Shown here one piece after another: positions 40,302 through 55,141 of a stretch of DNA of 64,000 nt; within the stretch, counting starts at the first letter, position 1, and every line of letters begins with the position of its first letter. The translations under genes were made by a program, and so were the position numbers. The notes under the pieces were generated by a model. The model was not told the DNA's origin. It was given only the letters and a program-made list of their open reading frames with translations, and searched no databases. Source of the DNA: a bacterium. GTDB taxonomy: Bacteria; JACRDZ01; JAQUKH01. The stretch spans positions 2,876-66,875 of the forward strand of contig JBFMCF010000068.1 of the NCBI GenBank assembly GCA_040754625.1. Direction: 5' to 3'.

Positions 40302-40339
40302 ATCGATTGATATATTGTAATACGATTATATCATCGATT
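40302..40339. promoter_or_regulatory. Imperfect inverted repeat in the vapBC promoter region (likely VapB operator)
   Basis: ATCGATTGATATA (40302-40314) pairs with TATATCATCGAT (40327-40338). The arms are complementary apart from a 1-nt deletion. The repeat lies 12-50 nt upstream of the vapB ATG. Confidence 0.45.
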
Positions 40340-40436
40340 GCATAAATGTCAAGAGTTTAAATTTGTTTATACCTTAAAAATCAATAGAATATTATGGTTA
40401 AGAGGAGTAAAATATAAAAAACAGTTTATAAACCAT

Positions 40437-43400
40437 ATGTTTAAAATTGGACAGATCGTTTCCTTAAAATCGAACCAGGAATTACGCGGGGCCGTAATAG
40501 AAATCATACCGGGTCAGCCCGAAGATCGCTGTACTGTTTTTCTTAGCGGTACTAAACAGACATTTTATGCCTCTCAACTTCAACCGGAAACAGAAAGAAC
40601 AGCGGAATATGAGCATCTTCCCGTTGATTATTTCCATGCCCGTTTAACTGCTCTCCAAATCCGCCATCCGGGTTTATCCGCCTTATATTCTTTAAATGCC
40701 GCCAGGGTTGATTTTATCCCGTATCAATACAGGCCGGTTTTGAAATTTATTCGTTCCGATCGTCCACGCTTGCTTATCGCGGACAGCGTTGGAGTGGGAA
40801 AAACCATAGAAGCCGGGCTTATTCTGCGGGAGTTGCAATCACGGCGGGACATTCGATCAATTCTTATTATATGTCCCCGGCCGCTTGTTATCGAGCGAAA
40901 ATGGGAAACAGAGATGAAACGTTTTGACGAACGTTTCACTTCTCTGGATGGTAAAACCCTTAGATACTGCATCAGTGAAATGGATAAGGATGGGTATTGG
41001 CCGGACCAGTATCAGAAGGTTATAATTCCCTATTCTCTGTTTGATGAAACTCTTTTGAATGGAAAAAATGGCGAAAAAAAGAAATATCTCAAGGGACTTT
41101 TGGATTTAGACCCGGCCCCGCGTTTTGACGTGGTAATTATTGATGAAGCCCATCATGTAAGAAATCCGGAAACTTATGCTCACAAAGTGGTACGGTTTTT
41201 CTGCGATAACGCGGAGGCGGTTTTATTTCTTACGGCCACTCCGATTCAGTTAGGAAGCGATGATCTCTTTGTACTGCTGAACCTGCTCCGTTCGGATTTG
41301 ATTATTGACCGGGAAAGTTTTAGCCTTATGGCGGAACCTAATCCATTTATCAATAGAGCTGTTGCCTATGTGCGTTCAGCATCTTCCGACTGGATTAAAA
41401 ATGCCTTGAGTTCATTAAACGAGGCGGCGGCAACTCAATGGGGCGGGCTAGTCCTTAAGAATAATCCGGAATTTCAGAGGATTGTGGGATTACTTCAAAA
41501 AGGAGAAATTTCTCCAGATGAGCGGGTTGGAATCATAAATAACCTCGAAAGTTTGCATACTTTCTCAAGGCTGATAAACCGAACCCGGAGGCGGGACATC
41601 GGTGAGTTTACCATGCGCAAGCCCGAAACTGTAAGTGTGGATTTTACGCCTTCGCAGAAAAAACTTCATGACGAATTGCTGGAAGTTCAGGCTAAAATTC
41701 TTGCTCTTTTACACGGCGATGTGAATGTGAAATTTATGATGACTACAATTTGCCGCCAAGCTGCAAGCTGTCTTTATGGCCTGGCTCCATTTATTGAGGA
41801 TAGGTTAACTGGCAAGTTGGATGATTTGGACGATGTAGATAATAACAATGGTATTCTTGATGCAAAAACCATTGAGGAAATAAAAGGCCAGGTTCAGGGG
41901 ATAATAAAACAAGCGGAGAATCTCGATCCCTATGACCCGAAGCTGGAAGCTTTAAAAAAAGTTGTCCGGGACAAACAGAAACTTATAAACAACAAGGTCA
42001 TGCTTTTTAGTACATTCAGGCATACTTTGAACTATTTATACCGACATTTGCAATCCGACGGTTTCCGGGTGGGGCTTGTCCATGGCGGTGTCCCGGATGA
42101 GGAACGCAGGTCGTTGCGCGACCGCTTTCAATTGGAAAAGACTGATGTAAGTGCTCTTGATATATTGCTCTTCTCCGAGATTGGCTGTGAGGGTTTGGAT
42201 TACCAGTTTTGCGATTGCCTGACAAACTATGATTTGCCATGGAATCCCATGCGTATCGAACAACGAATAGGCCGGATAGACAGAAACGGCCAGCGGAGTG
42301 AAAGCGTAATCATTTATAATTTTGTTACACCCGGCACCATTGACGCGGAAATTTATAATCGCTGTCTGCTTCGCATAGGCATTTTTAACAGCGCGCTTGG
42401 CGGCAGTGAAGAGATATTGGGTGAGATAAACCGGGAAATAAGGGACATTGCCGAAAATATCAGCCTGAGCGCGGAAGAACGACAGGAAAAATTTCAACAG
42501 CTCGCCGATAACAAAATAAGGTTGCTAAGGGAACAGGAGGAACTTGAAGAAAAACAGGTTGAATTTTTCGGCATCAGGCTTCCCGCCAATCAATTCAAGA
42601 AGGAAGTCGAAGAAGCATCCAGTTTCTGGCTTACACCCGGTTCCATCCAAAATATTATCTCCTGCTATTTAAAAACAATTTATTCTAAAGAACAAGAACT
42701 GATTCTTGGAGAGAAGGCGTTAAAAACCCTGCGGTTGTCCCAGGAAGCCAGAAACCGGCTTATTCAGGATTTGAATAAATTGCCGCGAGAAACAACGCCC
42801 GGTTACAGGGAATGGGAAAAATGGCTTAAGGGTAACGATCCTCTTCTACCCATTACTTTTGATTCCGACTGTGCTTCCAAAAATCCAAAAGCGGCTTTTA
42901 TTACACCGGTGCACCCTATTGTCCGTCAGTCCGCGATGGCCTTCGATACGGGGAATATGGCGGCTATATCTCTTACCGTTAAAGACAATTCTGTACCGGC
43001 CGGGATTTATCCTTTCGTGATTTATCAATGGCACTATCAGGGCATACTGGAGGATGTGATCTTGCAGCCGGTTACTCTGTCGGAAAAATTAAATACCCGC
43101 CTTGTACAATTGTTGGAAAAAGCAGAAGAAATGGCATCGGGTCTTTCGGCCACCCCGGATAGTTCAGCTTTGAATGAGCTTGATAATCAGCACCGCAAAC
43201 TGTGGTCGGAGGCCGTGGAAACTCACCGGAAGCGCACGGAAGAGCAGGTCAATTATAAGCGGGAGAGCCTTAACACAAGCCACAAGGCTAGAATTTCCCT
43301 GCTTAACGAACAGCTTTCCCAGGCTAAGGAAGAAAATATCAAGCGCATGCGCAATTTCCAGATTGCAAACGCCGAAGCAGATTATAACGGACTGATTGCC

Positions 43401-43481
43401 AAGCTGGACGCCGCCGTTAAACAGGCGGATATCAGGTTTCAGCAGGTGGCGTGCGGGGTTATTAAGATAGAGGGAGTTTAG
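40437..43481 (+). CDS. SNF2/SWI2-family superfamily-2 helicase with N-terminal SH3/Tudor-like module and about 330-aa coiled-coil C-terminal extension
   Basis: Motif I LIADSVGVGKTIEAG, motif II VVIIDEAHHVRN, motif III LFLTATPIQ, motif VI QRIGRIDRNGQ. The first ATG is 40437 (MFKIGQIVSLKS) and has no good RBS. The track ORF opens at TTG 40338, so the start is uncertain. Confidence 0.85.
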   Translation: MFKIGQIVSLKSNQELRGAVIEIIPGQPEDRCTVFLSGTKQTFYASQLQPETERTAEYEHLPVDYFHARLTALQIRHPGLSALYSLNAARVDFIPYQYRPVLKFIRSDRPRLLIADSVGVGKTIEAGLILRELQSRRDIRSILIICPRPLVIERKWETEMKRFDERFTSLDGKTLRYCISEMDKDGYWPDQYQKVIIPYSLFDETLLNGKNGEKKKYLKGLLDLDPAPRFDVVIIDEAHHVRNPETYAHKVVRFFCDNAEAVLFLTATPIQLGSDDLFVLLNLLRSDLIIDRESFSLMAEPNPFINRAVAYVRSASSDWIKNALSSLNEAAATQWGGLVLKNNPEFQRIVGLLQKGEISPDERVGIINNLESLHTFSRLINRTRRRDIGEFTMRKPETVSVDFTPSQKKLHDELLEVQAKILALLHGDVNVKFMMTTICRQAASCLYGLAPFIEDRLTGKLDDLDDVDNNNGILDAKTIEEIKGQVQGIIKQAENLDPYDPKLEALKKVVRDKQKLINNKVMLFSTFRHTLNYLYRHLQSDGFRVGLVHGGVPDEERRSLRDRFQLEKTDVSALDILLFSEIGCEGLDYQFCDCLTNYDLPWNPMRIEQRIGRIDRNGQRSESVIIYNFVTPGTIDAEIYNRCLLRIGIFNSALGGSEEILGEINREIRDIAENISLSAEERQEKFQQLADNKIRLLREQEELEEKQVEFFGIRLPANQFKKEVEEASSFWLTPGSIQNIISCYLKTIYSKEQELILGEKALKTLRLSQEARNRLIQDLNKLPRETTPGYREWEKWLKGNDPLLPITFDSDCASKNPKAAFITPVHPIVRQSAMAFDTGNMAAISLTVKDNSVPAGIYPFVIYQWHYQGILEDVILQPVTLSEKLNTRLVQLLEKAEEMASGLSATPDSSALNELDNQHRKLWSEAVETHRKRTEEQVNYKRESLNTSHKARISLLNEQLSQAKEENIKRMRNFQIANAEADYNGLIAKLDAAVKQADIRFQQVACGVIKIEGV

Positions 43482-43484
43482 AGA

Positions 43485-46400
43485 ATGACGAGTGATTATG
43501 GATATAGATATGAATGGTTTGAAGCATTAAAAAAAGACCGTGAGGAAAACGCTAGAGTACTAGAAAAACCTTCACTGGAGGAGACTAAACGTATCGTTTC
43601 AGAAATGTATTCCAAACAAGCTCATTTTATTTACGAATTATTGCAAAATGCGAGCGATGCCAAGGCGACAAAAATTAAATTTGTCTTGAAGAAGAACGGG
43701 CTTATATTTAAGCATAACGGAGCAGTTAGATTTAGTATTAGCGATCCACAAAAGGAAAGAGAAGATAAGAAAAATGGGAAGTTGGGGCACATTAATGCCA
43801 TTACCTCTGTGGCGCAAACTTCGAAAGGCCCTGAAGAAATAGGGAAATTTGGGTTAGGATTTAAGGCTGTATTTAAGTACACTGAAACACCAGAAATTTA
43901 CGATCCTAATTTTAAGTTTAAAATAGAGCGCTTTATTGTTCCTGTCGAGATAGAAAAGGATCATGAACTTCGGGAAAATGAAGAAACTCTGTTTTATTTC
44001 CCGTTTAATTTATCATCCAAACCATCCAAAGACGCCTATGAAGAAATCATGGAGAGATTAAAGCAGTTAGAAAATCCTTTATTATTTCTTGCTGGAGTGA
44101 TTGAGTGGAGTTGTGAAGGTAATGAAAGCGGAGTTTATTATAAAGACGAAAAGGCTTACCCAATTATAGATACCATAGAAGAAATAAACGGAGATGTTTT
44201 CTCAAGAAAGTTCCTGGTGTTTAAATCAAACAAAAATTGTTATGATGCAAGAATCGCATACCCAATAGTAAAAGAAAATGATAAAGAAGTACTAAAATCG
44301 AATCAAAAATTTCCTGCATATTATTTTTTCCCAACAAAAGAATCCACAGAATTAAAATTTATTTTACACGGGCGTTTTGATCTGACTGAAAACAGAGAAA
44401 ATATTAGAGAAAATAGCTGGAATAAAGAGCCAATCAAAGAATTGGCTTCCTTAGTCTGCGAAAGTTTACCAATAATTAAAAGCATGGGCTGGTTAAATGC
44501 TGGTTTTTTGGAAATCCTTCCCTTAGACTGTGATAGCTTACATGATAACCACATGTTTAGACCTATTTATGATGCTGTGCGGAATGCGTTATTCACACAA
44601 CCATTGTTGCCAACCAATGATGGCGGCTTTGTGTCTGCTAACCAGGCCAAATTGGCACGAGGGGCAGATTTGAGAAATCTATTATCCAGTGACCAATTAC
44701 AGCGACTATTTTCTTCTGAACGGCCACTGCGTTGGATTACCGGAGAAATTACAAAGGATTCATCCTCCGATTTACATTCTTATCTCATAAAAGAATTGAA
44801 TATACAGGAAGTTACTCCTGAAATGCTGGCTGGCAAACTTACGGAAATCTTTCTGGAAGCGCAAACCGATGAGGAGATGATTGAGTTGTACAAATTCTTT
44901 TTGAATAAAGAGTCCTTATGGCGTAGCAATATGCCTTTTATTCGCCGAAGCGATAATCAACATGTAAAACCTTTCAAAGATAACGGCGATCCCAACATTT
45001 ACATCTCCCTTAAAGAATCATCCGAACTCCCAATCGTAAAGCAAGAAATAGTTAGGGATGAGCAGGCTCGGGATTTTTTAAAAAAATTGGGTATTCCCGA
45101 ACTTGATAATGTAGCGGAGATAATCGGGAAAATTTTGCCAAAATATAAAAATGGTGGTGTGCAATTATTATCGGATGAGGAACATAAGAATGATATTTTT
45201 AAAATATTACAGGCATTAAAAACGGATTCACAAACAAAAAAAGAAAAGCTTATTAATGAATTCAAAGAAACGCCATTTCTCCTCGCCAAAAATGCCTCTT
45301 CAATGGAATCGGCTTATAGAAAACCAGGGGAGATTTACTTTCGATCCGCGGATTTAGAAATTTATTTTCAGGGCAATCCCAACGCCTGGTTTTTGAATGA
45401 ACCGGATGCAGAGAATAATATGGTTTTTAAAGAATTGGGTGTAGCGGATTCAGTGCGGGTAAAGACGAGGAGCACGGATAGGGTTGGAAATGTCATAATA
45501 AGAGATGAGCATCGTCGCAACACCGAGGGGCATATACGTGGCCTTCACGGGTTTGATCCAGACTGCACAATCGATGGTCTTGAACACGCACTTTCCCAAA
45601 TAACAAAAGAAAAGGCGATCTTTATTTGGAATAGGCTTGCTATCCCAAATATAAACAATATATCAGGAACTATTGAAAAGTCGAAATATAAAGATTATAA
45701 ACCAAGCGACAAACAGGGAGATCAACCCTCTAAAATGGGGGAACTGTTACGTTCAAATGCCTGGTTGCCTGGTGATAATGGAAAATTTGTTAATCCGCGT
45801 GAGATTACTCTTGAAAGTCTTCCAAGCGAATTTGAATCCAGCAAAGACTTGGCTGGAAAATTAATGATGAAGAGTAGCCCGGTGGAAACAGATGAAATTT
45901 TTGGTTTTAATCGTAAAGATATTTTTGAAGCAATAGAACAGGATCCAGATTGGCTGAGGGAACTTATGGCTCGCCAAAGCAAAAAGCCCGAATTTCCAGA
46001 CGAACCGGTTTCATACTCCTCGCGCAGGGAAGGAAAGGTAACTGAAGAAATTGAAGGTGCCACAGTTAAGTCGTATGGACCAAAGGTGAGAAGCGTCAGA
46101 ACATCCGAAAATAGCATTGATCCGGTTACCTGGTTAAGAAATCAATATACCAACTCTAATGAGGAAATGATTTGTCAGATATGCAAAGATGCTATGCCTT
46201 TTAAGAAACGCGATGGGCAATACTATTTTGAAAAGGTAGAAATACTATCCAGAGATCATTTTACCAAAGAACACGTAGCTCAATGGCTTGCCCTGTGTCC
46301 TGAATGTGCGGCTAGGTATCATGAATTTATAAAAAATGATCCTGAAAAAAAGGAGATGCAAAAAATTAAATCTGCTCTGGTTTCAGATAAGCCGGAGATT

Positions 46401-46508
46401 AGCATTTCTCTTGGAGAACTTAAAACAACCATTCGATTTACAGATAAACATTTTTCTGATTTAAAAACAATTACCAAAAATTATGATAAAGACGGAGGTA
46501 GACAATAG
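43485..46508 (+). CDS. Sacsin/NO-VEIN-type GHKL (Bergerat-fold) ATPase, 1007 aa, with C-terminal CxxC...CxxC zinc ribbon
   Basis: N-box FIYELLQNASDAKATKI and G-box IGKFGLGFKAVFKYT match the sacsin-type HATPase signature (ELxQNAxDA / GxFGxGFxSVF). The C-terminus is CQICKDAMPF...(about 45 aa)...CPECAARYHEF. The gene starts 3 nt after the SNF2 stop, with a GAGGGAG RBS inside the upstream gene. Confidence 0.8.
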   Translation: MTSDYGYRYEWFEALKKDREENARVLEKPSLEETKRIVSEMYSKQAHFIYELLQNASDAKATKIKFVLKKNGLIFKHNGAVRFSISDPQKEREDKKNGKLGHINAITSVAQTSKGPEEIGKFGLGFKAVFKYTETPEIYDPNFKFKIERFIVPVEIEKDHELRENEETLFYFPFNLSSKPSKDAYEEIMERLKQLENPLLFLAGVIEWSCEGNESGVYYKDEKAYPIIDTIEEINGDVFSRKFLVFKSNKNCYDARIAYPIVKENDKEVLKSNQKFPAYYFFPTKESTELKFILHGRFDLTENRENIRENSWNKEPIKELASLVCESLPIIKSMGWLNAGFLEILPLDCDSLHDNHMFRPIYDAVRNALFTQPLLPTNDGGFVSANQAKLARGADLRNLLSSDQLQRLFSSERPLRWITGEITKDSSSDLHSYLIKELNIQEVTPEMLAGKLTEIFLEAQTDEEMIELYKFFLNKESLWRSNMPFIRRSDNQHVKPFKDNGDPNIYISLKESSELPIVKQEIVRDEQARDFLKKLGIPELDNVAEIIGKILPKYKNGGVQLLSDEEHKNDIFKILQALKTDSQTKKEKLINEFKETPFLLAKNASSMESAYRKPGEIYFRSADLEIYFQGNPNAWFLNEPDAENNMVFKELGVADSVRVKTRSTDRVGNVIIRDEHRRNTEGHIRGLHGFDPDCTIDGLEHALSQITKEKAIFIWNRLAIPNINNISGTIEKSKYKDYKPSDKQGDQPSKMGELLRSNAWLPGDNGKFVNPREITLESLPSEFESSKDLAGKLMMKSSPVETDEIFGFNRKDIFEAIEQDPDWLRELMARQSKKPEFPDEPVSYSSRREGKVTEEIEGATVKSYGPKVRSVRTSENSIDPVTWLRNQYTNSNEEMICQICKDAMPFKKRDGQYYFEKVEILSRDHFTKEHVAQWLALCPECAARYHEFIKNDPEKKEMQKIKSALVSDKPEISISLGELKTTIRFTDKHFSDLKTITKNYDKDGGRQ

Positions 46509-46625
46509 GAGGGGCAACCATGGGTCTGTCTGCTGCAGGCAGGGAGCTGCCCCTACGTTTAACGATCCAGAAATATTTGTAACCCATGAAATTCAACCCC
46601 GACATCCATCCCGCACAAAAATAAC

Positions 46626-46654
46626 TTGACAAGTGAATAACATCTGGCTAAAAT
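46626..46654 (+). promoter_or_regulatory. Consensus sigma70 promoter of the abiE operon
   Basis: TTGACA (46626-46631), 17-nt spacer, TAAAAT (46649-46654). Confidence 0.6.
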
Positions 46655-46657
46655 ACC

Positions 46658-46693
46658 AATTATCGGCAATATATTTAATTATTGCCGATAATT
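46658..46693. promoter_or_regulatory. Perfect 14-bp inverted repeat (putative AbiEi operator)
   Basis: AATTATCGGCAATA (46658-46671), 8-nt spacer, TATTGCCGATAATT (46680-46693). It lies immediately downstream of the -10 element and 13 nt before the abiEi-like ATG. Confidence 0.6.
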
Positions 46694-46706
46694 TGATGGT
46701 GAGAAT

Positions 46707-47462
46707 ATGATAAATAAAACCGATACTGAAGAATTTATTGAATATTTTAAAAAAGAGAAATCATTTACCGCGAATGATGTTTATCATTTTTTTAATAATA
46801 TCCGGCAGGGTATAAAAAGATCTACGGTGAACTGGCGGATATATAATTATATTCAGCAGGGGATATTGCGCAGAGTCGGCCGGGGTGTTTATATAACGGG
46901 GGAAAGCAGAAATTTCACGCCTGTTCAAGATGAAAAGCAAAAAATTATAGCGTTTCAAATAAAAAAACAATTTCCTTTTGCCACGTTTTGTTCCTGGAGA
47001 TTGTCTATCCTGAAAGAGTTGTTTCAACACGTGCCCGCGATTAATTTTCTGATTGTTGAAGTTGAAAAAGACAGTTTAGACGCGGTCTTCCATTTTCTAA
47101 AAGAATCGAAAAAAAATACATTTAAAGAACCATCAAAAAACATAGTAGAAGATTTTGTCTGCGGAACGGATACTGCCATAGTTGTTAAAACGATGATAAG
47201 TGAATCGCCCGTGTTACAAATCGACGGTATAACCATTCCGGCTCTGGAAAAAATTTTGGTTGATTTATATATTGAGAGAGATATTTTCTATTTTCTCCAA
47301 GGTATCGAATTGTTAAACGTTTTTAAAAATGCCGCTGGGAAATACACGATTAATCGTAATAAAATGCTGCGTTATGCCAAAAGAAGAGGAAAAGAAACAG
47401 AAATCGAAAATATATTAATGCAAATAAACGGCAACAATCTACAAAAATTGACAATAATTTGA
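46707..47462 (+). CDS. abiEi: AbiEi-like antitoxin / transcriptional regulator (N-terminal wHTH)
   Basis: 251 aa. FTANDVYHFF...STVNWRIYNYIQQGILRRVGRGVY matches the AbiEi N-terminal wHTH pattern (..G.l.RvgRGvY). It ends 4 nt before the AbiEii gene. Confidence 0.65.
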   Translation: MINKTDTEEFIEYFKKEKSFTANDVYHFFNNIRQGIKRSTVNWRIYNYIQQGILRRVGRGVYITGESRNFTPVQDEKQKIIAFQIKKQFPFATFCSWRLSILKELFQHVPAINFLIVEVEKDSLDAVFHFLKESKKNTFKEPSKNIVEDFVCGTDTAIVVKTMISESPVLQIDGITIPALEKILVDLYIERDIFYFLQGIELLNVFKNAAGKYTINRNKMLRYAKRRGKETEIENILMQINGNNLQKLTII

Positions 47463-47466
47463 AATT

Positions 47467-48540
47467 ATGATTTCTAAAGATACGCTGCGGCTTGAATGGA
47501 TAAATCAGGTGTCCGCGAAAAATCGCAGGGCAGACAAAATACTTATTGAGAAGGTAATAAGGGCTTTAATGCTTCTGGAGGGTCTAGCGGAGTCAGATCT
47601 GCAGTTTGTTTTCAAAGGCGGAACGGCTGTAATGCTTCTTCAAGATATACCCGGAAGATTTTCGATTGACATCGACATAATCGTATTAAAAGAGGTTGAT
47701 TTCGATGCCATTTTCAAAACACTTATTAAAGAAAAAGGTTTTTCAAAATATGAACGGCAGAGCAGGAACACAGTTTCCGGAATTCAAAAACTTCATTATA
47801 AATTTTATTATACTTCTCTTTCAAGAATCAATACCGCAGAAGATAATGTCCTGCTCGATATCCTTGTTGAATCCTCGAAATACAAGCATATTATCCCGGT
47901 AAACATTGATTCACGGTTTGTAAAACATGATGGGCTGCCGGTAAAGGTAAATATTCCAAGTAAAGAGGACATCCTTGCCGATAAATTGACTGCTTTCGCC
48001 CCAAACACTACAGGAATACCTTATGAAAAAGGCGGCTTCAGCCGAGCGATGGAAATTATCAAGCAGCTGTATGATATCGGAAATCTTTTTGATGAAATCG
48101 ATAATGTGGCTGTTATCGGAGAGACTTTTAACAAAATAGTACAAACAGAAATGAAATATCGCGGAATGACCGGGGATATAGAGATTGTTTTAAATGATAT
48201 TTTTCAGACAGCACTTTGTTTGTCAACAAAAGGGAAAGCAGGTAAAGGAGATTTTACCGCGCTACAAAACGGCGTTTCACGAATCAGAGCGTACATATTT
48301 TCGGAATCGTACCATATTGAAAAAGCTATTATTCACGCTTCGCGTATCGCGTATCTTGTTAAAATGATCGAGCTGAAAGAAAAAACTATTACGCGTTTTG
48401 AAAACCCTGAACAAATCAGGGATTTTTTGATGATTGAAAACACTTTGGATACGAAACTTAATAAACTTAAAAAATCAAGTCCCGAAGCATTTTTTTACTG
48501 GTACCAGGTGTATTTGCGCATAAAGAATCAGAACCGATAG
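47467..48540 (+). CDS. abiEii: Nucleotidyltransferase AbiEii/AbiGii-family toxin
   Basis: 357 aa. FVFKGGTAVMLL....RFSIDIDIIV is the pol-beta NTase motif of AbiEii. DKL.A is also conserved. Confidence 0.8.
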   Translation: MISKDTLRLEWINQVSAKNRRADKILIEKVIRALMLLEGLAESDLQFVFKGGTAVMLLQDIPGRFSIDIDIIVLKEVDFDAIFKTLIKEKGFSKYERQSRNTVSGIQKLHYKFYYTSLSRINTAEDNVLLDILVESSKYKHIIPVNIDSRFVKHDGLPVKVNIPSKEDILADKLTAFAPNTTGIPYEKGGFSRAMEIIKQLYDIGNLFDEIDNVAVIGETFNKIVQTEMKYRGMTGDIEIVLNDIFQTALCLSTKGKAGKGDFTALQNGVSRIRAYIFSESYHIEKAIIHASRIAYLVKMIELKEKTITRFENPEQIRDFLMIENTLDTKLNKLKKSSPEAFFYWYQVYLRIKNQNR

Positions 48541-49562: not shown

Positions 49563-50987
49563 ATGAATATTCTTTTTGTCTCATCCGAAGTTTTTCCTTT
49601 CGCGAAGACAGGAGGGCTCGCTGATGTTTCAGGGGCTTTGCCTGAGGCGTTAAATAATCTTGAGCATAAATGCAGTATTATTATGCCGATGTACCGAAAA
49701 GTCCGGGAAAACGGGTTTCATCCTTCAAATATCAAATCGAACATAAAAGTCAAATTGGGGCAGGATGAATATAACTTTAATCTGCTTTTTTTAAAACATA
49801 ACAATACGGATGTGTATTTTATCGACAGGAAAGAATTTTTCGACAGGGACGGCCTTTACGGGACACCCGGGTCCGACCATGCCGATAACGCGCTAAGGTT
49901 TGCTTTTTTTGCGAAGGCCGTTGTTTCCGTGATAAAAAACATCGGGAAGATAGATATAATCCACTGCAATGATTGGCAGTCCTCGCTTTTGCCGCTTTAC
50001 TTGAAGAATGCCGGGCTTGATAAGATAAAAACAGTTTTAACAATCCATAATCTGGCATACCAGGGACTGTTTGCTCCGGATACGCTTTCTTCGATAGGCT
50101 TATCATGGGACTATTTCACGATGGACAAGCTTGAATTTTACGGCAAAGTAAGTTTTTTAAAAGCGGGAATAATTTATTCCGACGCGGTCACGACGGTAAG
50201 CAGGGGATACGCGAGGGAAATATTGACTCCTGAGTTCGGGTGCGGGCTTGAAGGCCTGCTCCAGACAAGAAAGGATTCCCTTTACGGGATTATTAACGGC
50301 GTGGATTATAATGAATGGAATCCTTTGAATGATAAATATATAGCGAAAAATTACAGCGAAAAAAATTTAAATGATAAAACAGAATGCAAGAAAGACCTTT
50401 TGAAGTCATTTAGCCTTCCGTTTGACAGCAGAAAACCCGTTATCGGAATGATAACGCGGCTTGCCGCCCAAAAAGGACTTGACCTTGTAGCGGAACGGAT
50501 TGAAGAAATTCTTTCATTAAATGTTTATTTGGTGCTCCTGGGAACAGGCGACGAGAAATACAATAACATGTTTAAAGATATCGCTGGAAAATACAAAGGA
50601 AAAGCCGGTATTAAAATAGGGTTTGATAATACCCTTGCCCATAAAATAGAAGCGGGAAGCGATATGTTCCTTATGCCGTCGCGTTATGAACCCTGCGGCT
50701 TAAACCAGATGTACAGCCTGAAATACGGGACTGTCCCTGTTGTCCGGGCGACAGGCGGTTTGGATGACACGATTTCGGATTTTGATCATTTTACGAAAAA
50801 AGGCAACGGTTTTAAGTTTTTAAACGCCACTATCGACGCCTTATACGCGGTTTTAAAAAGGGCAGTTGAAGTTTATAAAGACAGCAAAAGCTGGCATATT
50901 TTGCAGTTAAACGGCATGCACTGCGATTTCTCATGGGAAAATTCCGCGAAAGAGTATGTTGAATTGTATAAGAAGATTTTGAAGTAA
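49563..50987 (+). CDS. glgA: Glycogen synthase (GT5)
   Basis: 474 aa. Contains MNILFVSSEVFPFAKTGGLADV, HCNDWQS and PSRYEPCGLNQMY. Confidence 0.92.
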   Translation: MNILFVSSEVFPFAKTGGLADVSGALPEALNNLEHKCSIIMPMYRKVRENGFHPSNIKSNIKVKLGQDEYNFNLLFLKHNNTDVYFIDRKEFFDRDGLYGTPGSDHADNALRFAFFAKAVVSVIKNIGKIDIIHCNDWQSSLLPLYLKNAGLDKIKTVLTIHNLAYQGLFAPDTLSSIGLSWDYFTMDKLEFYGKVSFLKAGIIYSDAVTTVSRGYAREILTPEFGCGLEGLLQTRKDSLYGIINGVDYNEWNPLNDKYIAKNYSEKNLNDKTECKKDLLKSFSLPFDSRKPVIGMITRLAAQKGLDLVAERIEEILSLNVYLVLLGTGDEKYNNMFKDIAGKYKGKAGIKIGFDNTLAHKIEAGSDMFLMPSRYEPCGLNQMYSLKYGTVPVVRATGGLDDTISDFDHFTKKGNGFKFLNATIDALYAVLKRAVEVYKDSKSWHILQLNGMHCDFSWENSAKEYVELYKKILK

Positions 50988-53357: not shown

Positions 53358-53486
53358 AAAAAAATATTTATTAGCTTGACAAAGTTAACTAAATGTGAAA
53401 GAATAAAATTTTCCAAAAGTAACAAAATGTTTCGGCGGATTTAATGTTTTACAAATTGTTAAATTAACATTTTATGAGGGGAAAAT

Positions 53487-53984
53487 ATGGGGATAGATAA
53501 TGTTGGTTTGAATCTGAAAAAGTTCCGCGAAAATAACGGGTTTACGCAGGAATCCATAGCTAAAAGGCTGGGGGTGTCAAGGCAGGCTGTTTGCATGTGG
53601 GAGTCCGGGAAAAGGGAATTGAGGGTATCGACACTTATTGAAATAGCCGATTTTTTTGATGCCGGGATCGACGAAATAATAAGGCCGGGGAAAATAAAGG
53701 CGAATAATAACAAAAAAATATTAATTTCCAGGGCTACTTTTGAATTAAACGCGCCCGGCGCTAACGAGGTCTTGTTAATCGGCGATTTTAATTCATGGAA
53801 CGCGCCGGGGATACCTTTAAAGAAAAGTAAAAACGGCATTTGGAAAATTGATTTGGACCTTATGCCGGGGAAATATGAATATAAATTTATTATTGACGGA
53901 AAATGGGTAAACGACCCGGTCAATCCAAAAACAATTATAAATTCTTACGGCACACATAATTCAGTAAAGGAAATAATTGGATGA
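53487..53984 (+). CDS. XRE-family HTH fused to a CBM48/AMPK-beta-type glycogen-binding module
   Basis: 165 aa. HTH: LKKFRENNGFTQESIAKRLGVSRQAVCMWESGKRE. CBM48: FELNAPGANEVLLIGDFNSWN...KNGIWKIDLDLMPGKYEYKFIIDGKWVNDP. The stop overlaps the ATG of the next gene (ATGA at 53981-53984). Confidence 0.8.
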   Translation: MGIDNVGLNLKKFRENNGFTQESIAKRLGVSRQAVCMWESGKRELRVSTLIEIADFFDAGIDEIIRPGKIKANNNKKILISRATFELNAPGANEVLLIGDFNSWNAPGIPLKKSKNGIWKIDLDLMPGKYEYKFIIDGKWVNDPVNPKTIINSYGTHNSVKEIIG

Positions 53985-55141
53985 GAATAGCGTTTTTTTC
54001 ATGGGAATCATTACATTCCATAGCGATAGGCGGCATCGCGGTCCATGTTACCGAGATAGCCTGCGCCCTGCAGCGAAAGGGGCATGAAGTCCATGTTTTT
54101 ACCCGGATGGGACGCTCTAATCACAGCCAATATGAAAATATTCATGGTGTTCATTACCATAGGTGCCCTTACGCGCATCATCCTGATTTTATCGAGGAAG
54201 TGAATAATATGTGCAGATCAATGGTCCATTCTTTTTTCCAGACGGAAGATTATATAGGGCATTTTGATATTGTCCACTGCCATGACTGGCTTACAACAAA
54301 CGTCCTGGTCTGGATAAAAAAAGGCAGGCCGCGCAAGTCTGTTATTACAATTCATTCAACGGAATTCGGGAGATGCGGCAACAAATTTAACAAAGGCAGG
54401 TCGGATATTATCAGACATCTTGAGTGGTATGGGACATATGAGGCCAGCAAGGTGATTTGTGTCTCTAATTTCTTAAAGGAAGAGGTTAAGCGGATATACT
54501 CCGTGCCGGAAGACAAAATTAATGTTATCTATAACGGTATAAATTACAGGGATTTTGACGGCTGGATAGACCCGGGCGCCGTAAAAAGGATGTACGGAAT
54601 AGGGCCTATGGACCCCATGGTTTTATTTGTGGGAAGAATAGTTTATCAGAAAGGTACAGACCTTTTAATTGAAGCAATCCCGAGTATCCTGAAATTTCAT
54701 GGGAACGCGAAGTTTATATTTGTGGGTGACGGGGAAATGCGGCACCAGGTTGAGTCAAGGGCGCATCATCTGGGAGTAGCCCACGCGACAAGGTTTTTGG
54801 GGCACGCGAACGGATATAAATTAATAGACCTTTATAAGGCTTGTGATTGTGTGTGTATCCCAAGCCGTAATGAACCGTTCGGGATAGTCCTCCTTGAGGC
54901 GTGGAGCGCGGGAAAACCGGCAGTCGCTAGCGTAAACGGCGGGCCGGGAGAAATAATATGGCATGATGTTAACGGATTAAAAATTAATGACAATGTCGAT
55001 TCCGTGGCATGGGGAATAGGCACGCTGTTTTCTGATTTTGAACACGCCAGATGGATGGGACGAAACGGCCGTATAGCGGTTGAGACTGCCTTTTCGTGGG
55101 ATGTAATTGCCGATGTTACGCTTTCTGTTTATGAGAATTAG
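53981..55141 (+). CDS. GT-B glycosyltransferase, archaeal-type glycogen synthase-like (GT4/GT5)
   Basis: 386 aa. Contains MRIAFFSWESLHSIAIGGIAVHV, HCHDW and PSRNEPFGIVLLEAWSAGKPAV. Confidence 0.8.
   Translation: MRIAFFSWESLHSIAIGGIAVHVTEIACALQRKGHEVHVFTRMGRSNHSQYENIHGVHYHRCPYAHHPDFIEEVNNMCRSMVHSFFQTEDYIGHFDIVHCHDWLTTNVLVWIKKGRPRKSVITIHSTEFGRCGNKFNKGRSDIIRHLEWYGTYEASKVICVSNFLKEEVKRIYSVPEDKINVIYNGINYRDFDGWIDPGAVKRMYGIGPMDPMVLFVGRIVYQKGTDLLIEAIPSILKFHGNAKFIFVGDGEMRHQVESRAHHLGVAHATRFLGHANGYKLIDLYKACDCVCIPSRNEPFGIVLLEAWSAGKPAVASVNGGPGEIIWHDVNGLKINDNVDSVAWGIGTLFSDFEHARWMGRNGRIAVETAFSWDVIADVTLSVYEN

Follow-up and report, generated by a model that had tools for sequence, protein, structure and literature searches.

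Within a 64,000-nucleotide (nt) stretch of bacterial DNA (assembly GCA_040754625.1, contig JBFMCF010000068.1, positions 2,876 to 66,875; this whole stretch is referred to below as the window), one gene joins a helix-turn-helix (HTH) domain of the XRE, or Cro/C1, type to a family 48 carbohydrate-binding module (CBM48). Its 165-amino-acid (aa) product, P0001, is encoded directly ahead of a family 4 glycosyltransferase (GT4), P0002, and of a DUF4912 protein, P0003. We propose that P0001 is a glucan-binding autorepressor which would be titrated off its operator onto alpha-glucan, and we give this combined reading a probability of about 0.45.

Both domains of P0001 score above the curated Pfam cut-offs. 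HTH_3 (PF01381) matches residues 10-64 (E 2.1e-14) over positions 1-55 of the 55 in the profile, its 53.7 bits exceeding the cut-off of 23. AMPK1_CBM/CBM_48 (PF02922, PF16561) match residues 82-162 (E 4.2e-13 and 1.6e-10; 49.8 bits against 26.8 and 41.6 bits against 22.4), where the motif GDFNSWN...W...G.YEYKF..DG.W..DP is found. P0001 is a bona fide member of both families, and the fusion that had been proposed from the letters of the DNA by an earlier, sequence-only reading was thereby borne out. An AlphaFold2 (AF2) model, built on a 29-member family alignment, reached a mean predicted local distance difference test (pLDDT) score of 86 and shows a five-helix HTH (residues 4-16, 21-28, 32-39, 47-57 and 61-65; pLDDT 84-94), with the helix 2-turn-helix 3 unit included, followed by a disordered linker, of which residues 70-76 fall below a pLDDT of 50, and then by a beta-sandwich. 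The predicted template modelling (pTM) score is only 0.51 against the pLDDT of 86 and, given also the low values within the linker, the two domains appear to have neither a fixed mutual orientation nor an interface. Among family members with an overall identity of 44-73%, SRQAVCMWE in helix 3 is fully or almost fully conserved, from which one shared DNA target is predicted for the whole fused family.

The C-terminal domain could have turned out to be a generic immunoglobulin (Ig)-like module lacking the sugar-binding aromatic residues, a possibility that the sequence-only reading had itself raised. It did not: it superposes on the CBMs found in AMP-activated protein kinase (AMPK) beta1 and beta2 subunits, cyclodextrin complexes included, with a root-mean-square deviation (rmsd) of 1.3-1.6 Å over about 85 residues, and Foldseek comparison with 1Z0M, 1Z0N, 4YEE and 4YEF gave E values of 3e-9 to 5e-8 and template modelling (TM) scores by target of 0.8-0.9, at a sequence identity to the AMPK beta CBM chains of 31-36%. 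The residues that contact sugar are retained as well. In the HMMER alignment, (i) W104 of P0001 corresponds to W100 of AMPK beta1 (FNSW/FNNW), (ii) K133 to K126 (YKF/YKF), (iii) W140 to W133 (DGKW/DGQW), and (iv) Y154, G155, T156 and N158 to L146, G147, T148 and N150 (YGTHN/LGTIN); W104, K133, W140, G155 and N158 are invariant in the 29-member family alignment. In AMPK, residues W100, K126, W133, L146 and T148 contact carbohydrate and their mutation impairs glycogen binding; this CBM binds cyclodextrin as well as oligosaccharides longer than five glucose units, and branched oligosaccharides act on AMPK through it (PMC2642990). The affinities of CBM48 modules for oligosaccharides are sub-millimolar to millimolar (KD of 0.3 mM for beta-cyclodextrin in PMC2642990). 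On sequence and model together, it is very probable that P0001 binds glucan.

The other predicted activity is read from the DNA upstream of the gene. A consensus scan identified a sigma-70-type promoter with 10 of 12 matches plus a TG extension, and its layout (TTGACA / TGTGnCAtAAT) recurs in orthologous loci. An unsupervised expectation-maximisation (EM) search, run de novo on 16 orthologous upstream regions, returned a 19-nt motif with the consensus AAGTTAACAAAATGTGTCA, two copies of which stand ahead of P0001 as the predicted operators O1 and O2 (Table 1); one lies in the promoter spacer and the other just downstream of the promoter, positions that would be typical of repression. O2 is the top match to the position weight matrix (PWM) in the 2.75-Mb source genome, though it formed part of the training set; its leave-one-out score was reached by none of 1000 random windows, and O1 and O2 make up the only strong tandem pair in that genome. 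Twelve of the 16 upstream regions outscored, in leave-one-out tests, all of 1000 random 220-nt windows of the source genome, and one further locus has a motif site at -250. Out of sample, a site (13.9-24.6 bits) was present in each of the 11 new, non-redundant fused loci from metagenome contigs whose upstream sequence was usable, and these loci have slight similarity to the training regions beyond the motif and the promoter patch, except that L098 resembles L015 over 180 nt.

Loci lacking the HTH gave the opposite result. None of 52 CBM48-only loci in the same metagenome scan reached 13 bits in the 450 nt upstream (maximum 12.2, median 3.1), and nine CBM48-only loci with the same glycosyltransferase (GT) downstream scored at most 10.4; the operator strictly co-occurs with the HTH. 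Within the source genome, no motif of at least 13 bits was found upstream of glgC, the glycoside hydrolase family 57 (GH57) gene, glgA, glgB, malQ, the galT-like gene, the radical S-adenosylmethionine (rSAM) gene or PCMT, nor upstream of either other CBM48 gene, including that of a CBM48-GT pair on contig C83. The best score near glgB was a borderline 11.5 on the minus strand, and, away from this locus, most of the top single matches in the genome fall on long open reading frames, none of the matches lying upstream of a glycogen gene. The motif appears to be more than a promoter consensus, since in many loci its copies occur without a -35 box. Taken as an opposite-strand sigma-54 promoter (TGnCACA-N4-TGTTAAC), it lacks the -24 GG and points away from the operon, and this candidate was rejected. 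With these data, an operator-binding autorepressor is the probable identity of P0001.

An operator upstream of P0001 had already been suggested in the sequence-only reading, and one tied to the presence of the HTH was indeed recovered; it is the tandem 19-nt motif, not the palindrome TGTTAAATTAACA that had been put forward. That palindrome is present in the 5' leader. When this intergenic region (78% A+T) is shuffled, however, 32% of the shuffles contain a perfect 6+6 palindrome with a 0-3 nt loop (P about 0.32); the nearest relative (L012) does not preserve the left arm, and the palindrome has no match to the conserved family motif. It is probably not a functional element. As a separate observation, a conserved GT4 peptide, E-V/I-N-N-M-C-R, is encoded in some loci by operator-like DNA (L012:6736-6754, 18.7 bits; L008:6722-6740 and L018:921-939, 13-14 bits), the same site scoring only 5.0 bits in the window; this would be either a coding coincidence or an internal site in some lineages.

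Table 1. Features of the HTH-CBM48 locus, in positions of the window.
Feature	Position	Strand	Basis or remark
GT5 GlgA, bona fide	49563-50987		
Sigma-70-type promoter: -35 TTGACA (53376-53381), 17-nt spacer, TG (53396-53397), -10 AAGAAT (53399-53404)	53376..53404	+	
Predicted operator O1, AAGTTAACTAAATGTGAAA	53382..53400	+	fills the -35/-10 spacer and runs into the -10; PWM 13-14 bits, leave-one-out 11.9
Predicted operator O2, AAAGTAACAAAATGTTTCG	53416..53434	+	about +5 to +24 from the inferred transcription start; PWM 20.3 bits, leave-one-out 15.7
Palindrome TGTTAAATTAACA in 5' leader, probably not a functional element	53457..53469	.	chance-level, not conserved
Ribosome-binding site GAGGGG	53476..53481	+	5 nt before the P0001 ATG; read from sequence
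HTH-CBM48 gene P0001, 165 aa	53487..53984	+	Pfam, AF2 model, Foldseek to AMPK beta CBM, family alignment
P0001 XRE HTH, residues 10-64	53514-53678	+	
P0001 disordered linker, residues 66-80	53682-53726	+	
P0001 CBM48, residues 81-163	53727-53975	+	
GT4-type glycosyltransferase P0002, 386 aa	53981..55141	+	Pfam Glycos_transf_1, Glyco_transf_4, Glyco_transf_5
DUF4912 protein P0003, 346 aa	55195..56235	+	Pfam DUF4912 (PF16258), E 4.4e-31, 108 bits against a cut-off of 29.4

The fused architecture is shared by 38 relatives (44-71% identity to P0001) retrieved in a word-indexed protein search; their sources are metagenome-assembled genomes (MAGs) and metagenomes, and those that carry a name are Candidatus Omnitrophota. 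The ESM Atlas holds one HTH_3 plus CBM48 cluster of 54 members. About six representatives of the fused form, of which P0144 was inspected, were among the matches listed in an exhaustive profile search of 1.84 billion representatives, those matches being mostly multi-CBM48 and multi-HTH repeat proteins that allow no reliable count of the fused form. In GTDB, the source genome falls in a small phylum with six species genomes; the fused gene is present in each of the three genomes of its genus. Given the 38 homologues, the 54-member cluster and a recurring gene order, the fusion is no assembly accident. That order, HTH-CBM48 followed by GT4 and DUF4912, is conserved across relatives, with a GH57 branching enzyme next in line in some lineages.

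Many other loci, from Omnitrophota, Nitrospirota, Nitrospinota and others, have an orthologous GT4 (63-74% identical) and DUF4912 preceded by a stand-alone CBM48 protein of 90-145 aa without the HTH. Where the fused clade has its HTH, the stand-alone CBM48 orthologues beside GT4 have an N-terminal tail of 21-43 aa, in which lysine and arginine make up 29-44% in 10 of 10 cases and which bears a net charge of +6 to +14 in nine of the 10. Histone-like, lysine-rich tails of this kind were seen on GT4-adjacent CBM48 proteins at L024, L025, L028, L031, L038, L045, L046, L057 and L078. The source genome itself contains a paralogous module (G000:C83:63243-64722; L092:6232-8722; L002), in which a GerE/LuxR-type HTH protein (289 aa) is followed by a stand-alone CBM48 of 94 aa (57% identical to the P0001 CBM) and a GT4 (75% identical to P0002); neither DUF4912 next to it nor a 19-nt operator upstream was found, and its GerE protein may correspond, as a separate gene, to the HTH of the fusion.

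On this comparison of gene orders, the unit conserved between phyla consists of a small CBM48 protein and GT4, usually joined by DUF4912, and the HTH is an N-terminal addition specific to one Omnitrophota-related clade, standing in place of the lysine-rich tail. CBM48-GT4 is the ancestral arrangement, because an HTH-less CBM48 so widely precedes the orthologous GT4 and because the C83 module has the same pair. In other words, it is the HTH that was added onto a CBM48 protein, and not the CBM48 onto a regulator. The 88-aa CBM48 domains (fused, GT-adjacent and other) gave a tree with too little resolution for counting fusion events; the only hint that the fusion arose once is the invariant HTH recognition helix.

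We would explain these features as follows. Free P0001 would bind both copies of the 19-nt operator, one in the -35/-10 spacer and one past the transcription start, and thereby switch off the operon, its own gene included. As a glycogen-like alpha-glucan builds up, the CBM48 would carry P0001 onto the polymer by means of the flexible tether, with no allosteric interface being needed; the operator would then be vacated, and the GT4, the DUF4912 protein and the CBM48 protein would be made in proportion to the polymer, following the same logic as PhaR and the phasins on polyhydroxybutyrate (PHB) granules. Sequestration is favoured over allostery because the linker is flexible and no fixed inter-domain interface is predicted. 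The step at which glucan binding would bring about DNA release is the most tentative part of this scheme, and we place it somewhat short of even odds, drawing on the two domains and the flexible linker. A DNA-binding protein that also binds alpha-glucan had been postulated in the sequence-only reading; P0001 has the features of both, the effect of glucan on DNA binding being still a matter of inference. The accompanying remark, that such a mechanism was not known to have been characterised in bacteria, has to be narrowed, as titration is known for PHB through PhaR (PMC12542648) and would be new only for glycogen.

Several points weigh against this reading. The source organism is uncultivated, and all functional statements derive from comparative sequence analysis. 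The 19-nt motif could be read by another factor; it is only weakly palindromic (AACA-N3-4-TGTK), dimerisation of P0001 is unsupported, and the right half of the promoter-embedded copies (TGTGnCAtaat) overlaps an apparent extended -10 of the lineage, which inflates their scores. It is unusual for positive feedback, with more glucan giving more synthase, to govern a biosynthetic operon, except where its products are proteins of the granule surface. In many phyla the GT keeps its CBM48 partner without an HTH, so that the primary role of this partner may be enzymatic or structural, the HTH adding plain autoregulation. Finally, in G005, a 92%-complete genome of the same genus (L013/L011), the HTH-CBM48 gene lies directly after glgA, and neither a GT4 orthologue, with P0002 as query, nor an operator motif near the fused gene was found.

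The alternative that survives best, unlikely as we consider it, is a plain autorepressor with a structural CBM48: the HTH would exert constitutive negative autoregulation, the CBM48 would be a glucan-targeting or priming accessory of the GT4 in the manner of PTST/FLO6, and DNA binding would be indifferent to glucan. Simple autoregulation is common among XRE proteins, the overlapping or abutting start and stop codons suggest stoichiometric co-production, and the CBM48 gene stands without an HTH directly before the orthologous GT4 in many loci and phyla, as it does before the paralogous GT on contig C83. The flexible tether, however, is what a sequestration design needs, and some coupling would be near-automatic if both activities are real, since a protein held on an insoluble or very large polymer cannot simultaneously occupy one chromosomal site in most cells.

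Less probable again is a tether between granule and nucleoid, in which P0001 would position or segregate alpha-glucan granules, or the synthase, by fixing them to DNA (compare PhaM/PhaF on polyhydroxyalkanoate (PHA) granules), any transcriptional effect being secondary. The histone-like, polyanion-binding character of the lysine-rich tails of the stand-alone orthologues speaks for it, as do the clusters of ParA-like ATPases fused to CBM48 in the ESM Atlas, from Omnitrophota and Planctomycetota, ParA ATPases being known to use the nucleoid as a positioning matrix. From such a tether one would nevertheless expect non-specific DNA binding, or binding at many sites, whereas the recognition helix of the P0001 family does not vary, its specific motif occurs at its own promoter alone, as one tandem pair in 2.75 Mb, and the predicted sites overlap core promoter elements. 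Least likely of all, and improbable in our estimation, is a sensor of soluble ligand, in which the CBM48 would bind short malto-oligosaccharides as an effector domain altering oligomerisation or DNA affinity, with no granule sequestration: the AMPK CBM does bind cyclodextrin and oligosaccharides, branched ones act on AMPK through it, and the binding residues are conserved in P0001, but the linker is disordered, no inter-domain interface is predicted, and the oligosaccharide affinity of CBM48 is weak for an effector site (PMC2642990).

As to the enzyme downstream, the TGA stop of P0001 (53982-53984) overlaps the ATG of P0002 (53981-53983) as ATGA, and DUF4912 follows, just as the sequence-only reading had described. 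P0002 belongs to GT4, with Glycos_transf_1 and Glyco_transf_4 at 135.5 and 106.1 bits, both over the Pfam cut-offs; Glyco_transf_5 (5e-20) also exceeds its cut-off. It stays below the NCBIfam cut-offs for GlgA (GT5; TIGR02095; 87.3 bits against 328.45) and for GlgM/GlgA_Coryne (GT4 maltose-1-phosphate synthase; TIGR02149; 155.8 bits against 302.4). A GlgM-GlgE route is unlikely, since the GlgE N-domain (PF11896) was not found in the 98%-complete source genome. No close solved structural relative of P0002 was found, and its orthologues (63-87% identical) always lie downstream of a CBM48 gene. The expression "glycogen-synthase-like" is apt as a descriptive label, not as an activity; according to a recent review, what GT4 genes do in glycogen clusters needs to be clarified (PMC11046441).

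The position of DUF4912 downstream of the GT is conserved in more than 20 loci. The P0003 model comprises an N-terminal fibronectin type III (FN3)/Ig-like beta-sandwich (residues 19-131), some 130 aa of lysine-rich disordered sequence in the middle and, at the C-terminus, a small and conserved beta domain (residues 278-338). A fold search with the AF2 model (VIA-align) returned generic FN3/Ig-like matches with Z of about 9, a value common for unrelated models, and no informative match; a literature search on DUF4912 yielded nothing relevant. The neighbourhood of P0001 holds glgB, malQ, a galT-like gene and the GT5 glgA, while glgC and GH57 are encoded elsewhere in the source genome. The galT-like gene and glgA are neighbours in the nearest relative (L007); in the window they are separated by a block of about 10 kb (40338-48540). 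This block encodes an SNF2-family helicase (1047 aa), a sacsin-like protein (1007 aa), DUF6577 and an AbiEii nucleotidyltransferase toxin, and looks like an inserted defence or toxin-antitoxin island splitting the glycogen cluster.

Known control of glycogen in bacteria comprises allosteric regulation of GlgC, CsrA and global regulators. In the literature, we found no description of a bacterial regulator that senses the glycogen polymer itself, nor of a bacterial DNA-binding protein with a CBM48. It is therefore possible, though we hold it with more reserve than the titration model as such, that P0001 is the first glycogen counterpart of PhaR, that is, a transcription factor which would gauge directly how much alpha-glucan the cell contains, the polymer drawing it away from its operator, and one of several wirings of CBM48 to DNA or gene control in Omnitrophota- and Planctomycetota-Verrucomicrobiota-Chlamydiota (PVC)-related bacteria. 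The other candidate wirings are the CBM48 proteins with lysine-rich tails, ParA-ATPase-CBM48 fusions, and a CBM48-bearing anti-sigma factor of the extracytoplasmic function (ECF) type. A compact 165-aa protein with a defined operator and sugar site would make direct storage-polymer sensing testable in vitro for glycogen. If the model is true, it would offer the first functional handle on the widespread, uncharacterised CBM48-GT4-DUF4912 module, and a handle also on the GT4 genes of glycogen clusters (PMC11046441); the operator/repressor pair could further serve as a glycogen-responsive genetic part.

Two other groups of CBM48 proteins stand out. Fusions of a ParA-like ATPase (AAA_31/CbiA) with AMPK1_CBM/CBM48 form ESM Atlas clusters of 89, 142 and 234 members, mostly from Omnitrophota and Planctomycetota, and suggest a ParA-type positioning of glycogen granules on the nucleoid; a literature search for ParA with a CBM found nothing relevant. 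In addition, among the top matches of the profile search of representatives, many proteins of about 470-490 aa with four tandem AMPK-type CBM48 repeats (e.g. P0058) constitute a large uncharacterised family of multivalent glucan binders.

Compared with known systems, P0001 resembles phage and XRE autorepressors (434/lambda cI-like, SinR, C-proteins) in its five-helix Cro/C1 HTH and in the tandem operators overlapping its own promoter, and differs from them in that its C-terminal partner is a CBM rather than a dimerisation or peptidase domain, and in the weak dyad symmetry of its operator. With the plant proteins PTST/FLO6, whose CBM48 targets granule-bound starch synthase (GBSS) to starch (PMC13475482), it shares the pairing of a non-catalytic CBM48 with an alpha-glucan synthase; the plant proteins, however, bind GBSS by a coiled coil and are devoid of a DNA-binding domain, and the CBM48-GT4 pairing here is one of adjacent genes.

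The RsgI anti-sigma factors of Clostridium thermocellum (PMC10328401, PMC6852018) offer the example of a CBM on a bacterial transcription regulator that senses polysaccharide directly. RsgI is a membrane protein that responds to extracellular polymer and signals by proteolysis to a sigma factor, whereas P0001 is cytoplasmic, is itself predicted to bind DNA and would sense an intracellular storage polymer. A closer analogue of RsgI is encoded on contig C128 of the source genome (L003:1498-2869, minus strand), where an ECF sigma factor (230 aa) is followed by a 244-aa anti-sigma factor with a zf-HC2 zinc finger, one predicted transmembrane helix and a C-terminal CBM48 (YQYMF replacing YKF); this pair is the second CBM48-coupled transcription regulator of that genome and probably senses extracytoplasmic alpha-glucan.

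To the beta-subunit CBM of AMPK/SNF1 (1Z0M, 4YEE; PMC2642990) P0001 is related by fold and by the sugar-contacting residues, and also in the use of a CBM as the glycogen sensor of a regulator. The output of AMPK is a eukaryotic kinase heterotrimer, that of P0001 a bacterial HTH, and AMPK is allosterically controlled through a CBM-kinase interface, as opposed to the flexible linker of P0001, for which no interface is predicted. The nearest parallel in mechanism is PhaR (AniA), the PHB-granule-binding repressor of phasin genes in Cupriavidus, Paracoccus and Sinorhizobium, for which the accepted model holds that accumulating polymer sequesters the repressor and so derepresses the granule-associated proteins, with autoregulatory binding to its own promoter reported in some species (PMC12542648). 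The likeness is one of mechanism only, as there is no homology and no match in P0001 to the PhaR family in Pfam (PHB_acc). The polymer is alpha-glucan and not PHB; its recognition would be by a lectin-like CBM48 in place of the hydrophobic surface binding of PhaR, and the predicted regulon of P0001 is limited to its own operon. What the two would have in common, as predicted for P0001, is a single polypeptide that binds both promoter DNA and the storage polymer.

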